Source: Candidatus Sumerlaeia bacterium
GTDB lineage: Bacteria; Sumerlaeota; Sumerlaeia; SLMS01
Reading direction: 5' to 3'
DNA: 10,990 nt
Assembly: GCA_038208905.1 (NCBI GenBank)
Contig: JBBQYG010000139.1
Location: 1-10,990 of the forward strand
Below the pieces are notes generated by a model. That model was not told where the DNA came from. It was given only the letters and a program-made list of their open reading frames with translations, and made no database searches. Position numbers and translations under genes: made by a program. Of this stretch, positions 1-10,990 are shown one piece after another. How positions within the stretch are numbered: position 1 is the first letter of the stretch; the number at the start of each line of letters is the position of its first letter.

Positions 1-990
1 ACCCCTCGGCAGACGATCTGGAGAATGCCGCTCGCGCGGCAGCCCGGATTCCGCCCCCTGCCGTCAACGGCTCCATCGCCATCCTCACACCCGAGCGCGC
101 TGCAGCAACGGCTGATAGCGGCAATTCCACAAAGGCAGCAATCCGATCTATGACTTCCTGCAACTCGGGATACGGCAATAGGAAAAGCGACTTTCGACAG
201 AAGCTATTCCATTGCTCCTTCTTCCCTGAAATATTGACAAATCTTGAAGTCAGGCCTGCTGGTGCTACCAATGGAATATCGGTCTTTCTACGGGAAAACG
301 TCGCGCGAAAGGCCAGCACGAGGTCGTCGAGCCGAAACTCGCGGTGCTTGCTAAATAGCCAAATATCGAAATAATCCTTCAGCCTGCTGTTGATCTCGCC
401 CAACCTGCAAATCGCATGAAACTTCTCGGAGATGCTGGTCTCCATGCTGTAGGCGCGAACTCGCGGGCGAGGGAAATTCAGCAGAGACGGAAAGTCATCG
501 AAACCACATTCACCGGCAGCGTCTCCAATACCGATATCAGCTTGGAATCTGATCTTGGTCTTCGGGGGAAGCATCGCGACCATCGAAACCTTTATGCCGC
601 CGTAGGGATCGGCGGCGCGAGTTGTCTCCAACTTCATGTCCCTCGCATGGAAAAAAAGCCCATCTTCTATCCTCTCCACGGCGCAGATCTCGATGAACAT
701 TGCCTTGATTAGCTCGGGCGCCATGTCCCCCTCACCCAAAAAGTCAACGTCGCTGGTGGAGCGAAACTTCTCTAGATTCCACAACGGAAAGAGCATTCCT
801 CCCTTGAGAATCAGGCATTTCTGTGGCGCGATATCGCTAGGCGCCCAAGGAAGCCTTCGATGACATATCGTCGATGAAGACTCCCCGAGCTTACACCACT
901 GGACTCCTTTCCCCCCGACGAGGGATCCCGCAGCCTATTCAGGCGCGCGAGTATCGAAGTGCTGCGGTTTCGAGAATCGGGAGGGATCAT
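1..990 (-). pseudogene. abiEii: AbiEii/AbiGii-family nucleotidyltransferase toxin (type IV TA), split by a one-base frameshift near 811-825; 3' end lies beyond the window start
   Basis: Manual translation. ATG 990-988 overlaps the antitoxin stop (ATGA). Frame 0 reads MIPPDSRNRSTSILARLNRLR...RYVIEGFLGRLAISRHRNA then TGA (813-811). The -1 frame continues LILKGGMLFPLWNLEKFRSTSDVDFLG...DGLFF...DPYGGIKV...QADIGIGDA...FPSLL...AYSMETSISEKFHAICRLGEINSRLKDYFDIW...TFSRRKT...KEQWNSF and has no stop down to base 1. KGG, RxTxDxD, EK and RxKDxxD are AbiEii hallmarks. Pseudogene, recoding and sequence error cannot be told apart here. Confidence 0.85.
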
Positions 991-1586
991 CGCAGCATCT
1001 CCAAGTAGGGCCTCATGACGTTGCGGACACGGCAGGCTTCTGATTCGCGAAGCAGATCGTCCATTCGGACCACACGCCTCCGCCATGCGTCCTGAAGTGC
1101 TTCTGTCGCGACGTCGATGCCCACTTGGTTCCGAAACTTGAAGCAGTCGGCGACTGTCTTGGCGATCGAATAGATTCGGACCCGGACGCCATCGACGAGA
1201 TGTACTTCGATGCCCGCTGAGAAGGCCCGACCAGACATCCGGACCACTCGCACCATCGGACTGCCAGACTTGACCGGGCCCTTGTGCGCCAGCGCAAGCC
1301 ACACAAGTGGTGAATTCTGTGTTGTGAGTTCGTGGAAGCTCAGCGCGCTCAGGAGGCAAACCACCCCGCCGGGAAGCCGCCGACTTACCTCCGCCAAGGA
1401 TATATGTTCGGACATCGGAAAGTCCGCTCGTTGGTAGAGCCCTCTGCCAACACGCACAAGACTTCCCTCAGCGACCAAATCCCGGATCGCAACACTCGCC
1501 TTGTTGCTTTCGAGAATGTCCTTTGGCATGAAGACTCCGTGCGCCTCCGCCATGGAAAGGATTCGCTTCTTGAGGGCCTGCGGCAT
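987..1586 (-). CDS. abiEi: AbiEi-family type IV antitoxin / transcriptional autoregulator (N-terminal winged helix), 199 aa
   Basis: Family-typical segments LVRVGRGLY, GVVCLLSALSFHELTTQ, VRIYSIAKTVADCFKFRNQVGIDVATEAL and CRVRNVMRPYLE; lies directly upstream of, and overlaps by 4 nt, an AbiEii-like frame. Confidence 0.92.
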   Translation of the reverse strand: MPQALKKRILSMAEAHGVFMPKDILESNKASVAIRDLVAEGSLVRVGRGLYQRADFPMSEHISLAEVSRRLPGGVVCLLSALSFHELTTQNSPLVWLALAHKGPVKSGSPMVRVVRMSGRAFSAGIEVHLVDGVRVRIYSIAKTVADCFKFRNQVGIDVATEALQDAWRRRVVRMDDLLRESEACRVRNVMRPYLEMLR

Positions 1587-3863: not shown

Positions 3864-6800
3864 TCAATCCTCTTCCAGTTTGTGGATCAGTTCGTTGCTG
3901 GCGCGGCCGACGCGGGTGTGGCCTATCCAAGCGACCAGATCATAGAGCAGCGACATCACCGACGGGATGAAGAAGATCGTGGTGATCGTTCCCAGCAGCA
4001 GTCCGCCGAAGGTCACGACGCCGAGCCCGCGATAGAGTTCCGATCCGGCGCCGGGGAGGAACACGAGCGGCGCCAGGCCGAAAATCGTGGTTCCCGTGGT
4101 CATCATGATCGGGCGAATGCGCGACATGGTGGAGGCGATGATCGCCTCGCGGGTTTCCATGCCCTCCTTCATGAAGTTCAGCGCCTGCTCCACGATGAGG
4201 ATCGGGTTGTTCACGATGCTGCCCAGCAGGATCACGAAGCCGAGCATGGTGAGCACATCCAGGGACTGGATCTGGCCCTTGGTGGTCAGGGCAAGGTACC
4301 AGTTGAGGAACGCGAGCCCGATCACGCCGCCCGAAATGCCGATGGGCACGCTGAGCAGGATCGTAAACGGATGGCCCCAAGCGCGAAAGATCAGCACCAG
4401 CACCAGATAGACGAGCACGATCGCGAGGAGGAAGTCGCCGCTGAGCGCCTCCCGGATGGCCTTGAGCTTGTCGCTTGAGCCGCCGATGCGGAGCGAATAG
4501 CCCGGCGGCACCTTGTCTTCCTTCTGGAGCGCATCGACGATATTGGTCTGGATCAGGCCGATGGCCTCCTCCAGCGATGTGTCGGCGGGTGGAGTAATGG
4601 TCAGCGTCACGGCGCGCTGCTCGTCCACGCGGCGTATCTTTTCCGGCACGAAGTCGAAGGAGATGTCGACGACATCGGACAGCGGCACGCTGCGCCCGTC
4701 GGCGGCGGAAATGCGGACGGTATCGAAGCTGGAAATGGTGTCGAAGGCGCCCATCGTCGAGTACATGTACAGGTCGCGCTTCTTGCCGTCCTCATAGTAA
4801 TCGTCCACATAGGCGCCATCGCCAAGCACCCAGGCGCCATAGCCGATGGCCGACGCGGAAATCCCGAGTTCCGCCGCGCGATCCCACTTGGGGCGGACGG
4901 TAAGCTGGGGCTGGCCGACCTCGACGCCGGGGTCGGGACGCGGGGGCGCGTGAAAGGTCTCGATGGATTTCATGAAGGCGCCGAATGCGAGGCCGGTGGC
5001 CTTCTGCATGTCGGGGCCGATGATGTCCAGTTCGATGCCGCGGCTGCCGGAAAGTCCGGGGTCGAAGATGGACTGCTGCTGAGATATGGCGATGATGCCC
5101 GGGATCTTGCCCATCTCGCGCAGGAGCAACGGGGGCACGCGGGAACCCATCGCATCGTCCTTGGCGCGGGTGAACAGGAACATGCCGGCGGGGAATGCCA
5201 CAAAGAAGAAGTCGCGGATCGGCGGGCCGTCGAGCTTGCCCGACTCGTAGTCCTCGAGCGTTCCCTCCACATAGGGACGCATCCGGTTTTCCAGCTCGCG
5301 ACCAATGCCCGACATCTCCTGAAGGCCATAGCCCTGGGGCGGGATCATGAAGGCAAAGATCGAGTTCTGGTTACCCTCCGGCAGGTACTCCGTCTTGGGA
5401 AGGAAAAGGACGAAGAGGGCGATGCACATCGCCACCATCGCGCCGACGAGCACAAGGCGGCGGATGAGCCCCCCCATGACGAACCGGAGCGCCGAGTCGA
5501 TTCCGAAGTACAGGCGACGCGACGCCGCCATGATGCCAAAGAGCTGGTGCTTGCCCGTTTCGCCCGGCGTGTTCCCGTGGGCCACATGGCGCAGCAACCG
5601 CGCCGCGCAGCACGGGATCACCAGCACCGCCACCACGAAGGAGAAAAGGTTGGTGGAGGTGATCGCGATGGCCAGATCGCGGAAGAGCTGGCCAGCCTGC
5701 TCCTGCAGGTTGATGATCGGAAGGAACACCACCACGTTGGTGACCGTGGCGGAGAAGATCGCCGTCCAGACTTCGCTGATCCCGTGTTCGGCGGCGGTAT
5801 AGGAATCCTTGCCCATTTCCTTGTGGCGGAAGATATTCTCCAGCACCACGATGGAATTGTCGAGCACGGAGCCGATGGAGAACGCGAGGCCAGCGAGCGT
5901 GATGACGTTGATGCTGCGGCCCATGAGGCTGATGAAGAAAAGACTGCCCAGGAGGCAGAGTGGCACCGCCAGGCCCACGACCAGCGTGGAGCGAAGGTGC
6001 TGTAGGAACAGCATCAGCGTGATTAGCGCCAGAATGCCACCCGTGAGCATGTTGTTGCGCACCATCGCCACCGCGGAACCCACGTATTCCGTGTCGTCGG
6101 TGACCTGCGTCATGAACATCCCCTTATCCTTGAGGACGCCATCGTTGAACTCCTTCATGCGCGCGCGCACCTGCTCCATCACGACAAGCAGGTTGGTGCC
6201 CGGCTGATGCCTGACACCCATGGCGAGGGCCTGGCGCCCGTTGTGGCGGATTACGGAGTTCTTCTCCCCCACGCCCATGCGCGCATAGGCCACGTCGCGC
6301 ACGTGGATCGGCGTTCCGTCGCGCACGGTGATGATGATGTTCTCGATGTCCTGGGAGCTGCGGGCGCGGCCTGTCGTGCGGACGTTGTAGCGGCGCTTTC
6401 CCTCCTCCAGGTCGCCGCCGGGAACGTCGCGGTTGTTGTCGCGGATCGCCTCGCGAATCTGGAAGATCGTCAGGCCGCGCTCGGCCACCTTGGCGGGGTC
6501 CATAAAGACCTGCATCTGGCGCGAGGAACCGCCATAGACACCTTGGACGCTGGCGACTCCGGGGATGCGCTCGAAGCCCGTCTTGATGGTATCGTTGACG
6601 AAGTCGAATTCCTGGGCCACATCGATGTCGGCCTCCTGCCCGGGGCGGGCGCGGACGCTGAACCACGCGACGGGCTGGTCGGAGGAGCCGGTGGTGGAGA
6701 GCGACGGCTCGTCCACGTTCTCTGGGTAGGAAGGGACCTGGGCCAGCGCGTTGCTGACGCGGATCAGCGCCTCGTTGAGCTCGAAGCCCACGGGGAAATC

Positions 6801-7073
6801 CAGCTCGATCACCGCCATGCCCAGCTCCGCCGTGCTGGTCATCTTCTTGAGGCCCGGGACGCTGCGGAGGAACTCCTCCTGCTTCACGAGGATGTCCTGC
6901 TCCACGTCCTGCGGCGTGGCGCCGGGATAGATCGTGGTAACCGAGATCGTCGGTTCCTGCACGTTGGGCGTAAGCTGGATCGGCAGCTGGAAAATCGCCA
7001 AAACGCCGAACAGCACGATCCCAATGCAGAGCACCGATACGGCGATGCCATTGTGGATGAAGTATTTGATCAT
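3864..7073 (-). CDS. RND efflux transporter permease subunit (AcrB/AcrD/AcrF family), 1069 aa
   Basis: Length and RND topology; N-terminal LPIQLTPNVQEPTISVTTIYPGATPQDVEQ; TM4 IGSVLDNSIVVLENI; TM10 GSIVNNPILIVE; TM11 SRIRPIMMTT; GAGSELYRGLGVVTFGGL. Confidence 0.95.
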   Translation of the reverse strand: MIKYFIHNGIAVSVLCIGIVLFGVLAIFQLPIQLTPNVQEPTISVTTIYPGATPQDVEQDILVKQEEFLRSVPGLKKMTSTAELGMAVIELDFPVGFELNEALIRVSNALAQVPSYPENVDEPSLSTTGSSDQPVAWFSVRARPGQEADIDVAQEFDFVNDTIKTGFERIPGVASVQGVYGGSSRQMQVFMDPAKVAERGLTIFQIREAIRDNNRDVPGGDLEEGKRRYNVRTTGRARSSQDIENIIITVRDGTPIHVRDVAYARMGVGEKNSVIRHNGRQALAMGVRHQPGTNLLVVMEQVRARMKEFNDGVLKDKGMFMTQVTDDTEYVGSAVAMVRNNMLTGGILALITLMLFLQHLRSTLVVGLAVPLCLLGSLFFISLMGRSINVITLAGLAFSIGSVLDNSIVVLENIFRHKEMGKDSYTAAEHGISEVWTAIFSATVTNVVVFLPIINLQEQAGQLFRDLAIAITSTNLFSFVVAVLVIPCCAARLLRHVAHGNTPGETGKHQLFGIMAASRRLYFGIDSALRFVMGGLIRRLVLVGAMVAMCIALFVLFLPKTEYLPEGNQNSIFAFMIPPQGYGLQEMSGIGRELENRMRPYVEGTLEDYESGKLDGPPIRDFFFVAFPAGMFLFTRAKDDAMGSRVPPLLLREMGKIPGIIAISQQQSIFDPGLSGSRGIELDIIGPDMQKATGLAFGAFMKSIETFHAPPRPDPGVEVGQPQLTVRPKWDRAAELGISASAIGYGAWVLGDGAYVDDYYEDGKKRDLYMYSTMGAFDTISSFDTVRISAADGRSVPLSDVVDISFDFVPEKIRRVDEQRAVTLTITPPADTSLEEAIGLIQTNIVDALQKEDKVPPGYSLRIGGSSDKLKAIREALSGDFLLAIVLVYLVLVLIFRAWGHPFTILLSVPIGISGGVIGLAFLNWYLALTTKGQIQSLDVLTMLGFVILLGSIVNNPILIVEQALNFMKEGMETREAIIASTMSRIRPIMMTTGTTIFGLAPLVFLPGAGSELYRGLGVVTFGGLLLGTITTIFFIPSVMSLLYDLVAWIGHTRVGRASNELIHKLEED

Positions 7074-7110
7074 GGATGTGTCGCTGGAGGGATGGGAGGA
7101 GGTGCTTGGC

Positions 7111-8424
7111 TTACTTGCCGTTGGATTGCGCGCTGAAGTCTTCCTTGAAGAAAGCCGCGGGATCGAACGTGTCGCCGCCGGCCTGCGTCTGGAAGGCGTC
7201 CATGATCAACTCGGCGCCGGGCCGGACGCGCTCGTTGCCGCGGGTGATCACGCGCTGGCCGGGCTTCAGATCGCCGAAGACCTCGACCGCCTCGCCAAAG
7301 AAACGTCCCGTATCCACGGGCACCCTTTCCGCCGTGGCCTTTCCATCGACCATCTTGACGCGATAGACGATCGGCTTGGGGACGCCGGGCACGATGGCGT
7401 CCTTGGGGACGACGATGCTCTTGTCGCCGGTGGCCTCGGGGTCGAGGACGAGCCGCGCCAACATGCCGCTGGCAAGGCGCTGATCGGGATTCGCGAGCTG
7501 GATACGGATCGGAAACGTGCGATTGCGCGGATCCGCGCGGGGAATGCGCTCGGTCACGGTGCCCGCATACTTGCCCTTGGGGTCGGCATCGATGGAGATG
7601 GTCAGCAGGTCGCCCAGCTTCACCTTGTGGAATTGCGACTCGGGAACGGGGATGGCGACTTTGACGATGTCGTTGCGCTCGAAATTCAGAACCGTCTGCC
7701 CGCGATCCACCCACGATCCCACATCAACCAGCCGCTCCGTGACGACGCCGGGATACGGCGCGCGGATCGTGGAACGCTGGAGCGCGTCCCGGGCCATCGC
7801 GGCCTCCGCCTCCGTCGAGAGCGCGCTGGCCTCCATCGCGGCGATCACCTCCGCGCGTGGGCCCTCCAGCGCCAGGTCATACTCGGCGCGCTTGACCGAC
7901 TCGTTGGCTCGTGCGGTCTCCGCCCGGGCACTGGCGGAGTCACGCTCGCTCTGGCTGACGGATCGCTCCGCGAGCAGCTTCTCATAGCGCTGGAATTCGC
8001 GCTCGGCGATTTCCGCGTTCGCCTTGGCCTCCTTCCAACTGGCCTCGGCAATGGCAATGTCGGCGGGGCGGGATCCCGCGCGAAGCTCGCGAAGCATCTC
8101 GCGGTCGCGGCGGGCATCGGCGGCGGCCCGGTCGGCGGCGAGCCGCAGGGGAAGCTGCCGCATCTGCAACAGCGGCGCCCCGCTTGTCACAAAGTCGCCC
8201 GCCTCCACAAACAATCGGTCCACCACGCCATCTTCCTCCACACCGATGGCGGTCTGGGCGAATGGCTCCACAGAACCCGTCAGGCGGATCGGCTGGGAGT
8301 AGGCCCCCTCCTCCACAATCCCGGTGGTCACGGGGACGGGGGGCATGTCGGGAGGCTGGGCCGCGCCCCCGCTGAAGAGGGCTGCGACGAGGAGTGTGGC
8401 GAAAAGGGTCTTGGGGCGACTCAT
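7111..8424 (-). CDS. RND efflux periplasmic adaptor (membrane fusion protein), about 437 aa
   Basis: Lipoyl half-motifs GVVDRLFVEAGDFVTSGAPLLQM and IRAPYPGVVTERLVDVGSWV, a long coiled-coil hairpin, ADPRNRTFPIR, LASGM and GDLKPGQRVITRG. Start set at ATG 8424 (MSRPKTLFATLLVAALFSGGAAQ, signal-peptide-like); ATG 8460 is an alternative. Confidence 0.92.
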   Translation of the reverse strand: MSRPKTLFATLLVAALFSGGAAQPPDMPPVPVTTGIVEEGAYSQPIRLTGSVEPFAQTAIGVEEDGVVDRLFVEAGDFVTSGAPLLQMRQLPLRLAADRAAADARRDREMLRELRAGSRPADIAIAEASWKEAKANAEIAEREFQRYEKLLAERSVSQSERDSASARAETARANESVKRAEYDLALEGPRAEVIAAMEASALSTEAEAAMARDALQRSTIRAPYPGVVTERLVDVGSWVDRGQTVLNFERNDIVKVAIPVPESQFHKVKLGDLLTISIDADPKGKYAGTVTERIPRADPRNRTFPIRIQLANPDQRLASGMLARLVLDPEATGDKSIVVPKDAIVPGVPKPIVYRVKMVDGKATAERVPVDTGRFFGEAVEVFGDLKPGQRVITRGNERVRPGAELIMDAFQTQAGGDTFDPAAFFKEDFSAQSNGK

Positions 8425-8583
8425 CCAGAGAGGGAAAGAAAAGGCGATACAGTTGGTCATTTGTATGTGCGACACCTTGGCACGCGATGGGATGAACTCT
8501 TGCCGGGCTCCGCTGGCGTTTGGACCGCAAGACCCCGCGCTGCTTGGCGTTGGGGCGGCCCGGACGTTTGCATCCGGCGTTTC

Positions 8584-8595
8584 AAACACGTGTTT
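8584..8595. promoter_or_regulatory. Perfect 12-bp palindrome, candidate repressor operator upstream of the efflux operon
   Basis: AAACACGTGTTT is self-complementary, AT-rich in a GC-rich context, and lies just past the upstream gene's terminator and about 160 nt before the adaptor start. Confidence 0.45.
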
Positions 8596-8601
8596 AGATG
8601 T

Positions 8602-8640
8602 AACAAGAACAATGCCGGACTCGCGGGGAGCCCGGCATTG
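8602..8640 (-). terminator. Rho-independent terminator of the PPIase gene
   Basis: Minus strand CAATGCCGGGCTC-CCCGC-GAGTCCGGCATTG (13-bp stem, one G-U pair) followed by TTCTTGTT, about 45 nt after the stop at 8684. Confidence 0.7.
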
Positions 8641-8683
8641 GTAGGGTGCTGGCAGCAATCAGATGGCGCCGAAGACGCGCGCA

Positions 8684-10204
8684 CTACTCAACCCACTTGA
8701 AGTTTCCGTCAGCCATGATGCGGTCGGCTTCCGCGCGGCGAGCATCCTGACGCGCATTGCTGATCAAAACTCCGATGATGTAATCGCGCTTCTCCTCCAA
8801 GGGCAGAGGTGGAACCCGGCGCCGATCGTGGAGTTCGTAGAATTCCGCCTTTTCCTGATTCGCGTGGGGCTTGGTTAAGCTGCCAATCTCGGCCCCCAGC
8901 AATTCGCGGTCGCTGTCACCATGGTCGGTGGTGTGAATCCACCCCGGGTGGTTGTGGAGTTCCAAACCTTCCGTTCGGTATCGTTGGACAAGGGTCGGCG
9001 TATCGGTGCCGTCGGAACGGTTGGTCGCCACACGACGCGCGATCGCGATGGCCTGCTCGGACGTCGAGACGGATGCCCCCGGGGTTCGACTGATGGGAAC
9101 TGTGTAGCGGGTCAGCTTGAACACGCCTTCACCGCGCATCTCATCGGGCCGCGTTCGATAGTACTCGCGAATCGCCTCCTCGGTTGGGACCCAATCCGCC
9201 CCGTACTCCTTTTCAAAGTAGGTGGCGGCCAGATAGCGATCCAGTTGCAGGTCGCGACGCAGCACACAATCGGCGTTGGCCTTCTCCTCCTCGGTCGCGA
9301 GGCGAAAGATCTCAGCGCTGGGGATTTCGCCATTCTCGCCATGTCCCACGGCATCGGCGGTGAGTTCCTGAATCCGGTCGCGGTAGACGCGATCGACTAA
9401 CCGACGGCGAAGGTTCTCGTCGCGGGGGATGTCAACGACCTGCGGTTCGCGCGCGTCGCGCCGGTCGGTGATCTGGAAAATGTAGAATCCATTGTGAAGC
9501 GCGAGCGCGCGAGACAGCTCCTGGATGGCGAGCGAGTTAATCACCTGCATCACGGCGGGATTCAAGCCAGCGTCAGGCTCGATCCAGCCGATGTCCCCTC
9601 CGTCGCTGGCGCTACTGGCCTCGGAAAACTTGCGGGCTGCCTCCGTGAAGGAGACCTCGCCTGACTCGATCGTCGCGCGAAGTTGATCCATGTCGGCGGC
9701 GAGGCGGGCACGCGTGGCAGGCGGGGCACTCGCGGGCGGATAGGCTCGAAAGATATATCGCACATTGCGCGCGGGGCGGATATTGAAGGTGTCGCGGTGT
9801 TTTTCGAGCGTGGCGGCCAAGACCGCGAGACTGGCGGATTCCGCCTCCTCGCGCAGGCGCGCTTTCACGAGTTCAGCCACGCAGGTGCGGTACTCTTCGG
9901 CAATCTGGCGGGTGTATTGCGATTCCAGCGGGAACTCCGCCGCGCGTGCCTCCTGCGCGGCTCTGCGGGAAAACACCAGATCGCGGAGGGAAGTATTCAG
10001 CAGATCATTGGCATCAATGCGCGTTGCGTCGTTCCCTTCGCGCGATACCGCAAACGTATCGGAGTAGGGCGAACCGATCATCGTGCAGAGCGTGTTGATC
10101 TCGTACCGGGTAACTTCTTGTCCGGCGTAGGTGGCTACGACCTCGCCCCTGGCAATTCCCGCGTGGGAAAGGAGCAGGAGCGCGACTGACAGAACTCGAA
10201 GCAT
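8684..10204 (-). CDS. Exported parvulin (PpiC-type) peptidyl-prolyl isomerase, SurA/PrsA/PpiD-like foldase, 506 aa
   Basis: Signal peptide MLRVLSVALLLLSHAGIARG; SurA/PrsA-like start EVVATYAGQEVT; rotamase motif SFTEAARKFSEASSASDGGDIGWI...NGFYIFQITDRR; PTEEAIREYY and PLEEKRDYI segments flank a second degenerate domain. Confidence 0.85.
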   Translation of the reverse strand: MLRVLSVALLLLSHAGIARGEVVATYAGQEVTRYEINTLCTMIGSPYSDTFAVSREGNDATRIDANDLLNTSLRDLVFSRRAAQEARAAEFPLESQYTRQIAEEYRTCVAELVKARLREEAESASLAVLAATLEKHRDTFNIRPARNVRYIFRAYPPASAPPATRARLAADMDQLRATIESGEVSFTEAARKFSEASSASDGGDIGWIEPDAGLNPAVMQVINSLAIQELSRALALHNGFYIFQITDRRDAREPQVVDIPRDENLRRRLVDRVYRDRIQELTADAVGHGENGEIPSAEIFRLATEEEKANADCVLRRDLQLDRYLAATYFEKEYGADWVPTEEAIREYYRTRPDEMRGEGVFKLTRYTVPISRTPGASVSTSEQAIAIARRVATNRSDGTDTPTLVQRYRTEGLELHNHPGWIHTTDHGDSDRELLGAEIGSLTKPHANQEKAEFYELHDRRRVPPLPLEEKRDYIIGVLISNARQDARRAEADRIMADGNFKWVE

Positions 10205-10240: not shown

Positions 10241-10278
10241 TACAACAACGCAGCCGGTTGGAAAACCAACCGGCTGCG
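10241..10278 (-). terminator. Rho-independent terminator after the DWNLY-tail gene
   Basis: Perfect 13-bp stem CGCAGCCGGTTGG / CCAACCGGCTGCG (10249-10261, 10266-10278) with a 4-nt loop, followed on the minus strand by TTGTTGTA, about 30 nt after the stop at 10307. Confidence 0.75.
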
Positions 10279-10306
10279 CGGAACGTCATGCTGAAACGAC
10301 CTACGA

Positions 10307-10990
10307 TCAGTACAGGTTCCAGTCGCGCACGTTGGCGGCGGGAAGCGAGGTCTTGACGATCACGTTGTTCGTGATCAGCCAGTAGATGGAGTTGCCCTCG
10401 ATGATGACGTCGCCCGCGCCATTCAAGTTGGCATTTGTCCCGATCAGCACGGGAGTGTTGTCGCTGGGCCGGACGTCATTGGTGAAATAGGTGATGGCGC
10501 TGCTGAGGAAGTCAGACTGGGCATAAACTTCGCCCTGAATGGCCGTATTTCCAGCACCGACGTTGCCGCTTCCCAATGCGTAGGAGGGAACGCCCACCAG
10601 AGTGCCAACCGTAAAGGCAGCGTACAGACCCGTCGCGGGACGGGGACCGGCGTATACCCCGCCCGCTGCATCTGTCGCGTCGTTATAGTTGCCGCCGGTG
10701 GTGCCGCCCGTGTTGCGGAACCAGTAGGACGTGGCGCTCGGATCCCACTCAAGGTGCGGCGTGCCACCGACAGCGATTGCGGTCGGCGTCACGATTGCCC
10801 GGGTGAAGGTGAGGCCACCATCTGCGGTGGTGAACTTCGAGACATTCGGGAAACCCGAATTGCCTACCAGAATCTTCGTGCCGTTGCCTGAACCAATCAC
10901 CGACATGTCGTCGCCGGAGCGAACGGTATCGGCTGTGGGACCGGCGAAGGCTTCCGTCGATGCGGAAACGGCATTGGCATGGCGATAGAC
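10307..10990 (-). CDS. 3' part of a probably exported beta-rich protein (DUF4623-like) with C-terminal tail AANVRDWNLY; 5' end outside the window
   Basis: Frame is open to base 10990 (VYRHANAVSASTEAFAGPTADTVRSGDDMSVIGSGNGTKILVG...), so the track's Met at 10906 is internal. Gly/Thr/Asn/Ala-rich and Cys-free. Segments RSGDDMSVIGSGNGTKIL, FTTADGGLTFT, NANLNGAGDV and IYWLITNNVI resemble my recollection of DUF4623-type domains; not verified by search. Confidence 0.8.
   Translation of the reverse strand, partial: VYRHANAVSASTEAFAGPTADTVRSGDDMSVIGSGNGTKILVGNSGFPNVSKFTTADGGLTFTRAIVTPTAIAVGGTPHLEWDPSATSYWFRNTGGTTGGNYNDATDAAGGVYAGPRPATGLYAAFTVGTLVGVPSYALGSGNVGAGNTAIQGEVYAQSDFLSSAITYFTNDVRPSDNTPVLIGTNANLNGAGDVIIEGNSIYWLITNNVIVKTSLPAANVRDWNLY

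Follow-up and report, generated by a model that had tools for sequence, protein, structure and literature searches.

The C-terminal tryptophan tail AANVRDWNLY, encoded with its TGA stop at 10307..10339 on the minus strand of the window (the whole stretch of DNA analysed, an entire contig of 10,990 bases), is, judged from sequence, a portable C-terminal tag found on dozens of mostly non-homologous proteins predicted to be exported. It is one of 46–66 copies in the genome, and the tag spans two bacterial phyla in the genome sequences compared. The best explanation, to which we assign a probability of about 0.5, is that the tail acts as a donor β-strand which would load many cargoes onto the tip of a type II secretion system (T2SS) or type IV pilus.

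The tail closes a minus-strand ORF (10990-10307) of 227 aa, open at its 5′ end, with the C-terminus ...IYWLITNNVIVKTSLP-AANVRDWNLY-stop, as the sequence-only reading had described; the tail itself lies at 10339-10310 and the TGA at 10309-10307. The rest of the ORF (10340..10990, minus strand) encodes the C-terminal two thirds of a predicted DUF4623-like β-propeller protein whose gene start lies off the contig; because the window is the entire contig, the N-terminal third is absent. Downstream on the same strand, a terminator-like hairpin at 10248..10279 (14 pairs, 10 of them G-C, with a T-rich tail; consensus scan only) is consistent with a genuine gene end. The closest full-length homologue, P0116, shares 47% identity with the window protein over 228 aa, and its predicted model (pLDDT 90.5) gives as top Foldseek match the DUF4623 structure 4FTD (E 1.4e-12). 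The window fragment itself has no Pfam match, while PF15416 scores above cut-off in the homologues P0013, P0019 and P0091. On the predicted structure, the carrier in the window is a DUF4623-like propeller. Full-length relatives have a signal-peptide-like N-terminus. In the P0116 model the final strand stops at residue 333, residues 334–344 are without secondary structure, and the mean pLDDT over the last four residues is 47. The tail is therefore not an integral last strand of the domain in this model, in agreement with the earlier proposal, and is a module outside the predicted fold of its carrier.

Directly downstream of the tagged gene is a PPIC-type rotamase gene (8684-10204, minus strand). 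At two loci of another genome that hold homologues of the tagged gene (G027, L002 and L006), the neighbouring gene again appears chaperone-like by eye. Elsewhere in the window, a putative RND-type efflux transporter and membrane-fusion protein are recognized by sequence at 3864-8658 (minus strand), with a terminator-like hairpin at 8640-8610, found by consensus scan, upstream of this unit. A two-gene unit at 2-1586 (minus strand) presumably resembles an AbiEi/AbiEii type IV toxin–antitoxin pair.

The genome of the window (4.24 Mb, 93.9% complete) was searched for further copies of the tail, using gene calls from our own codon-score script and no standard gene finder (3,450 genes, 3,254 with a stop). 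Of the 3,254 closed genes, 46 match a leave-one-out tail profile, whereas pseudo-termini give 0.38 matches on average. The core pattern W-x-[LMIV]-[YFH], followed by 0–1 residue, stands at the end of 54 genes where 1.8 are expected on average, and the union of the two sets is 66 genes (2.0% of 3,254). Expressed as a consensus, (S/T)-V-x-[DN]-W-x-[LMI]-[YF] or looser, the tag thus ends 46–66 of the 3,254 genes, where 0.4–1.8 are expected; the regular expression suggested beforehand matches eight closed ORFs of the genome. When tails are removed, the 46 proteins found by the profile fall into 34 single-linkage clusters, which bears out the suggestion that the tag sits on otherwise non-homologous proteins. 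A signal peptide is predicted, by a simple heuristic, in 34 of the 42 complete tagged genes and in 666 of 2,274 others (Fisher p 1e-11), an enrichment that had likewise been anticipated. Pfam families are present in 19 of the 41 tagged proteins scanned, including GH18, GHL10, CotH, M14 peptidase, GSDH, LTD, FG-GAP, Golvesin_C, BNR and others; the remaining 22 have none. The tail is preceded by a Ser/Pro/Thr-rich linker, and its first half has S/T/D/N at −4, D/N at −1 and sometimes Pro at −2; this half could equally form the start of a short helix.

We infer that the tagged proteins are exported by the Sec pathway and that the tag directs their export or anchoring. The lack of a basic cluster and of a transmembrane helix, described in the sequence-only reading for the window protein, extends to the tagged set as a whole: none of the 66 tagged proteins has at least two K/R within the last six residues, and a 17-residue hydropathy of 1.6 is reached in the last 45 residues of only two (maximum 1.71). 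Lipoprotein and Tat routes were considered and rejected, there being only four loose lipobox matches and no Tat matches in the tagged set. The tail is not covered by any model of NCBIfam (24 tagged proteins) or Pfam (41 tagged proteins).

Comparison of 161 homologues of the window domain, with C-termini classed by regular expression, reveals what stands at this position in other proteins. The W tail is found in 28, a T9SS-like domain in 46, PEP-CTERM in one and another small terminal domain in 73; seven end right after the domain, one of these with a divergent W tail, and six have other ends. The PEP-CTERM assignment of P0013 is borne out by Pfam, which also identifies Por_Secre_tail in P0014, P0020 and P0059, and the earlier suggestion of DUF4623-like domains accompanied by sorting signals proved sound. 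In addition, paralogues of tagged proteins in the genome of the window carry dockerin-like repeats at the end in place of the tail (11 such genes by regular expression). Since sorting or docking modules are found at the same position in other homologues, the tail occupies a sorting-module slot. The same slot is filled in P0036, P0044 and approximately 70 other homologues by a small terminal domain with an F-Y-R-like last strand, which we take to be typical of Verrucomicrobia; no Pfam sorting model matches it in the homologues scanned, and it may be another undescribed sorting domain.

Two readings bear directly on this slot. The tail might have no sorting role, serving to stabilise the end of the protein or to protect it from proteases, or being a relic, as its absence from some homologues would allow; this is very improbable, since the Trp motif lies at the extreme end of proteins of 34 unrelated clusters and in two phyla, and the tail fills the slot of the sorting domains of its relatives. 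Alternatively, the tail could be a dockerin-like docking peptide, the protein leaving by an ordinary export route and then binding a putative surface or periplasmic scaffold. The replacement of the tail by dockerin-like repeats on paralogues, and the Ser/Pro/Thr-rich linker, would fit such a role. Nevertheless, no scaffold candidate was found, YDPxNG pilins being the sole family clearly enriched near tagged genes, and we regard docking as unlikely.

Within the phylum of the window, two strict DNA tail patterns, both of which ignore TAG stops, match 52 and 69 of 75 genomes. Three apparently tag-free genomes (G037, G032 and G033) yielded variant tails on a looser search and were dropped as tag-negative lineages. 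In G033, a single contig that is 96% complete, 400 kb contain 180 long ORFs, of which 8 end in tails divergent in their first half, compared with 0–1 at pseudo-termini. Because the apparent negatives have variant tails, phylogenetic profiling within this phylum failed. The earlier suggestion that VxDWxLY-like tails occur in Sumerlaeota proved sound; the named relatives of the window protein, like those of the pilins, are Candidatus Sumerlaeota, the phylum to which the genome of the window presumably belongs. Contrary to what the term lineage-specific had implied, the tag extends beyond a single phylum: in a second GTDB phylum, the strict tail pattern is present in 33 of 35 genomes, with 0–2 control matches each. 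These 35 genomes were reached via pilin relatives labelled 'Candidatus Omnitrophota' or 'bacterium' by NCBI, and are presumably Hinthialibacterota (OLB16). The single verrucomicrobial genome tested gave no tail match.

A candidate partner for the tail is suggested by the K subunit of the second phylum. All 35 genomes encode a giant GspK-like protein, whose match to the NCBIfam GspK model (E 1.4e-6) stays below the cut-off. In the single locus read from end to end it is a pilin of approximately 2,300 aa (L303:5547-12503 in G086), and the H, I and J subunits encoded in its operon, which has the gene order H-I-J-K, are enlarged; in other genomes its length is 1,300–2,300 aa, leaving aside copies interrupted by the end of a contig. 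In 35/35 genomes the protein ends at the second-last strand or at most three residues past it (consensus AQRKLETVYxR in most), and in the locus read the gene closes with an ordinary TAG codon, beyond which the DNA is non-coding. Ordinary Sumerlaeota GspKs align through the second-last strand and then continue into a last strand, e.g. ...ALYWQEY or ...PIYWHEY, which has W-x-x-Y in common with the tag. The strand assignment derives from sequence alignment, not structure; the local profile match has a probability of 79% (E 1.6e-5, 23 columns), and the global alignment has a probability of 7.5%. Mapping of the strands onto solved GspKs by sequence gave a weak XcpX match (E 0.34) or none. As aligned, the second-phylum K without its last strand is the acceptor layout that is completed by PilC/PilY1 tails in type IV pili. 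Two second-phylum genomes (G101 and G102) have the truncated K without a strict-pattern tail, and a single dedicated adhesin, instead of every tagged protein, could supply the strand that this K lacks (approximately 1.5 kb of flank was checked). The combination of the tag with a truncated K in a second phylum is new in this analysis.

In the phylum of the window the K subunits are of the other kind. Three K-type pilins in the genome of the window, and the relatives examined, keep a cis last strand as judged from their sequences; these cis strands score below zero on the tail profile, and one GspK of this genome, encoded on contig C33, has approximately 35 charged residues between its last two strands. 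A profile of the second-phylum K finds nothing significant in this genome (93.9% complete), and against the 75 genomes of the phylum gives only weak motif matches in 18 (best E 1e-4). Two candidate readers were rejected. A PilX-like protein encoded on contig C6 matches in 44 of the 75 genomes and was not found in tag-rich genomes such as G036, G027, G031 and G037. A K of the type encoded on contig C180 gave one weak N-terminal match only amongst five second-phylum genomes, and it was this match that led to the giant K. In genomes of family f7 (L087 and L089), K lies elsewhere in the genome, apart from the H-I-J genes.

Strand donation of this type has precedents. The last 10–12 residues of PilC/PilY1 are required for pilus assembly and have been modelled as the final strand of the PilK sheet, whereas GspK supplies its final strand in cis, according to the parts of the account consulted (PMC13533445). 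In the PilC/PilY1 tail, which adds a strand to PilK/PilX, a Trp is conserved and is followed at +3 by a hydrophobic residue, as given in the portion consulted of a second account (PMC13711793). By analogy, the tail of an exported cargo would add the missing strand to the sheet of a GspK/PilK-type tip pilin, and this strand donation would load each cargo onto the tip, either to be exported or to be displayed at the surface. In such a mechanism the tail would bind K and the cargo would pass through a secretin. In the phylum of the window, the tail might displace the resident strand of K, or might bind another subunit, or the acceptor may have been missed. The overall estimate stands at about even because K is truncated in the second phylum but has a cis strand in the phylum of the window, and tip loading is accordingly rated higher for the former and lower for the latter. 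A bolder version, in which any periplasmic protein ending in V-x-D-W-x-L-Y would donate the tip strand, license filament assembly and ride out on the tip in both phyla, falls somewhat short of even odds.

The genome of the window encodes filament and secretion genes in some number: four secretin matches, one of them with TPR repeats, a PilMNOPQ-like run, a T2SS-like operon and two further minor-pilin operons; one pilin operon continues past a contig end. It also encodes approximately 40 GspG-like pilins with a YDPxNG motif (41 motif copies; e.g. L011:2520-3098). The fuller motif, YDPxNG..S.GD, is present in 75/75 genomes of the phylum in 4–90 copies each, and relatives of these pilins are found in the second phylum. 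A YDPxNG pilin gene lies within 300 bp of 6/46 tagged genes compared with 46/3,372 in this genome (p 5e-5), and the same adjacency is seen for 9/137 tagged genes compared with 9/673 at 78 pilin-selected loci in other genomes (p 0.001). In the second phylum, 7 of 21 tagged genes at ten tag-selected loci, one of which overlaps a pilin-selected locus, are at most 1 kb from a pilin. Amongst gene families, these pilins are the only one clearly enriched beside tagged genes (9/39, p 0.0007 uncorrected).

This enrichment raises an alternative in which the reader of the tail is not K but the YDPxNG pseudopilins, binding along the filament, or the periplasmic domains of a secretin such as the one with TPR repeats. 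Such a reader would explain why K keeps its cis strand in the phylum of the window, and the motif is both universal there and extends to the second phylum. On the other hand, 87% of tagged genes are not next to a pilin, the adjacency may come from shared regulation, and the truncated K in 35/35 second-phylum genomes would be left unexplained; this reader is rather unlikely, if somewhat less so than docking. When a YDPxNG pilin was modelled together with the tail encoded by its neighbouring gene, the score was 0.01 against a mark of 0.32, with controls not folded, and counts neither for nor against this reader; the pilin model itself gave weak pilin matches only, with no Foldseek match at E ≤0.001. 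A kinship of the tail to the end of GspG (DDIGNW) was considered and rejected; four residues only are shared, and this end scores −1.6 on the tail profile.

A further alternative to tip loading is that a PorU-like C25 cysteine peptidase cuts immediately in front of the tail and links the cargo to a glycan at the surface, without a T9SS translocon. C25 genes are present in 73 of the 75 genomes of the phylum of the window and in all five second-phylum genomes tested, with the His motif in 23/23 examined and the Cys in the expected place wherever the sequence examined extended that far. Two large proteins match the PorU model in part (approximately 170 bits, against a cut-off of 420), and one type lies upstream of epimerase and O-antigen ligase genes. 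The preference of PorU for small and polar residues at its cut site, as stated in the portion consulted of PMC5445135, also counts in favour. Against this, the genome of the window has no PorV, and G033 keeps its (divergent) tails while having no match to the large C25 and only one weaker C25 match. An apparent co-loss of the tail and the large C25 in G033 and G070 fell once variant tails emerged. We consider a role for C25 in reading the tail improbable. Separately, an 1,800-aa PorU-like C25/CARDB peptidase heads a conserved run of genes (L131:1504-12921 in G004; L138; L139), and is followed by a TPR protein, a 620-aa protein of no assigned family, an epimerase and an O-antigen-ligase-like gene. 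From its gene content, this run is possibly a protein–glycan conjugation system of its own.

Substrate recognition by type II secretion is a long-standing open question. The pairing of a truncated GspK with a ten-residue donor strand makes one answer to it directly testable. If tip loading holds, a mechanism described for single pilus adhesins, in the parts consulted of PMC13533445, would be a general cargo address. On the bolder version, one machine would handle dozens of interchangeable enzymes and adhesins, and ten residues would spell out a legible export signal in a system where substrates are generally considered to carry none. The truncated GspK and its donor strand would also offer a small module with which to engineer secretion or the display of proteins at the surface. 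From sequence alone, the tag also points out which proteins of two widespread uncultured phyla are likely to be exported or to lie at the surface. The literature searched, in which subscription journals were thinly covered and supplements lay outside the search, holds no description of the tail, and the words 'pili', 'pilin' and 'C-terminal' are absent from the main text of the Sumerlaeota genome paper (PMC8092238).

Comparison with known systems indicates that the tag is not a tripartite signal and not a T9SS domain, and that its carriers are not PilC/PilY1 proteins. Tripartite sorting signals such as LPXTG, PEP-CTERM, GlyGly-CTERM and MYXO-CTERM (defined in the part consulted of 10.1101/2023.06.07.544157) are likewise short, portable, C-terminal and many-to-one, and PEP-CTERM fills the slot of the tail in P0013. 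In contrast to these, the tag has neither a transmembrane helix nor a basic cluster, and a search of the genome of the window gave no exosortase match, the control being detected in one genome. Among paralogues encoded by the genome of the window, some end in dockerin type I modules and others in the tail, but these modules are folded calcium-binding repeats, whereas the tag is a short linear motif.

Like the tail, the T9SS C-terminal domain (PF18962) fills this slot in the family of the window domain, PorU-like C25 peptidases are encoded, and T9SS cargoes resemble the tagged set in having LTD, FG-GAP, CotH and choice-of-anchor D domains. However, the T9SS domain is folded and approximately 75 residues long, compared with 10 residues for the tag, and Pfam and NCBIfam scans found no PF18962 on the window protein or on the tagged proteins scanned. 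PorV gave no match in the genome of the window, although the positive control was detected; a search for SprA was also without a match, its positive control being equally silent. The C25 proteins are far below the PorU cut-off, and the large C25 was not found in G033.

The tag had been thought to match no characterised system, but it does resemble the C-terminal strand of PilC/PilY1 (and MshQ): each consists of approximately 10 residues that lie beyond the folded domain, at the very end of a protein exported (here by prediction) through Sec, with a Trp and a hydrophobic residue at +3. In both systems a K subunit without its last strand exists, here in the second phylum only (35/35, by sequence alignment). 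They differ in range, one or two adhesins carrying the PilC/PilY1 tail and dozens of enzymes and binding proteins, unrelated to one another, carrying the tag; in consensus (W-R-E-hydrophobic for PilC/PilY1; V-x-D-W-x-L-Y for the tag), and in the K subunit, which is here GspK-like and very large, and which keeps its strand in the phylum of the window. The PilC/PilY1 Pfam family is not represented amongst the 41 tagged proteins scanned. By analogy, the closest functional counterpart of the tag would be the PilC/PilY1 strand, here put to use for many cargoes.
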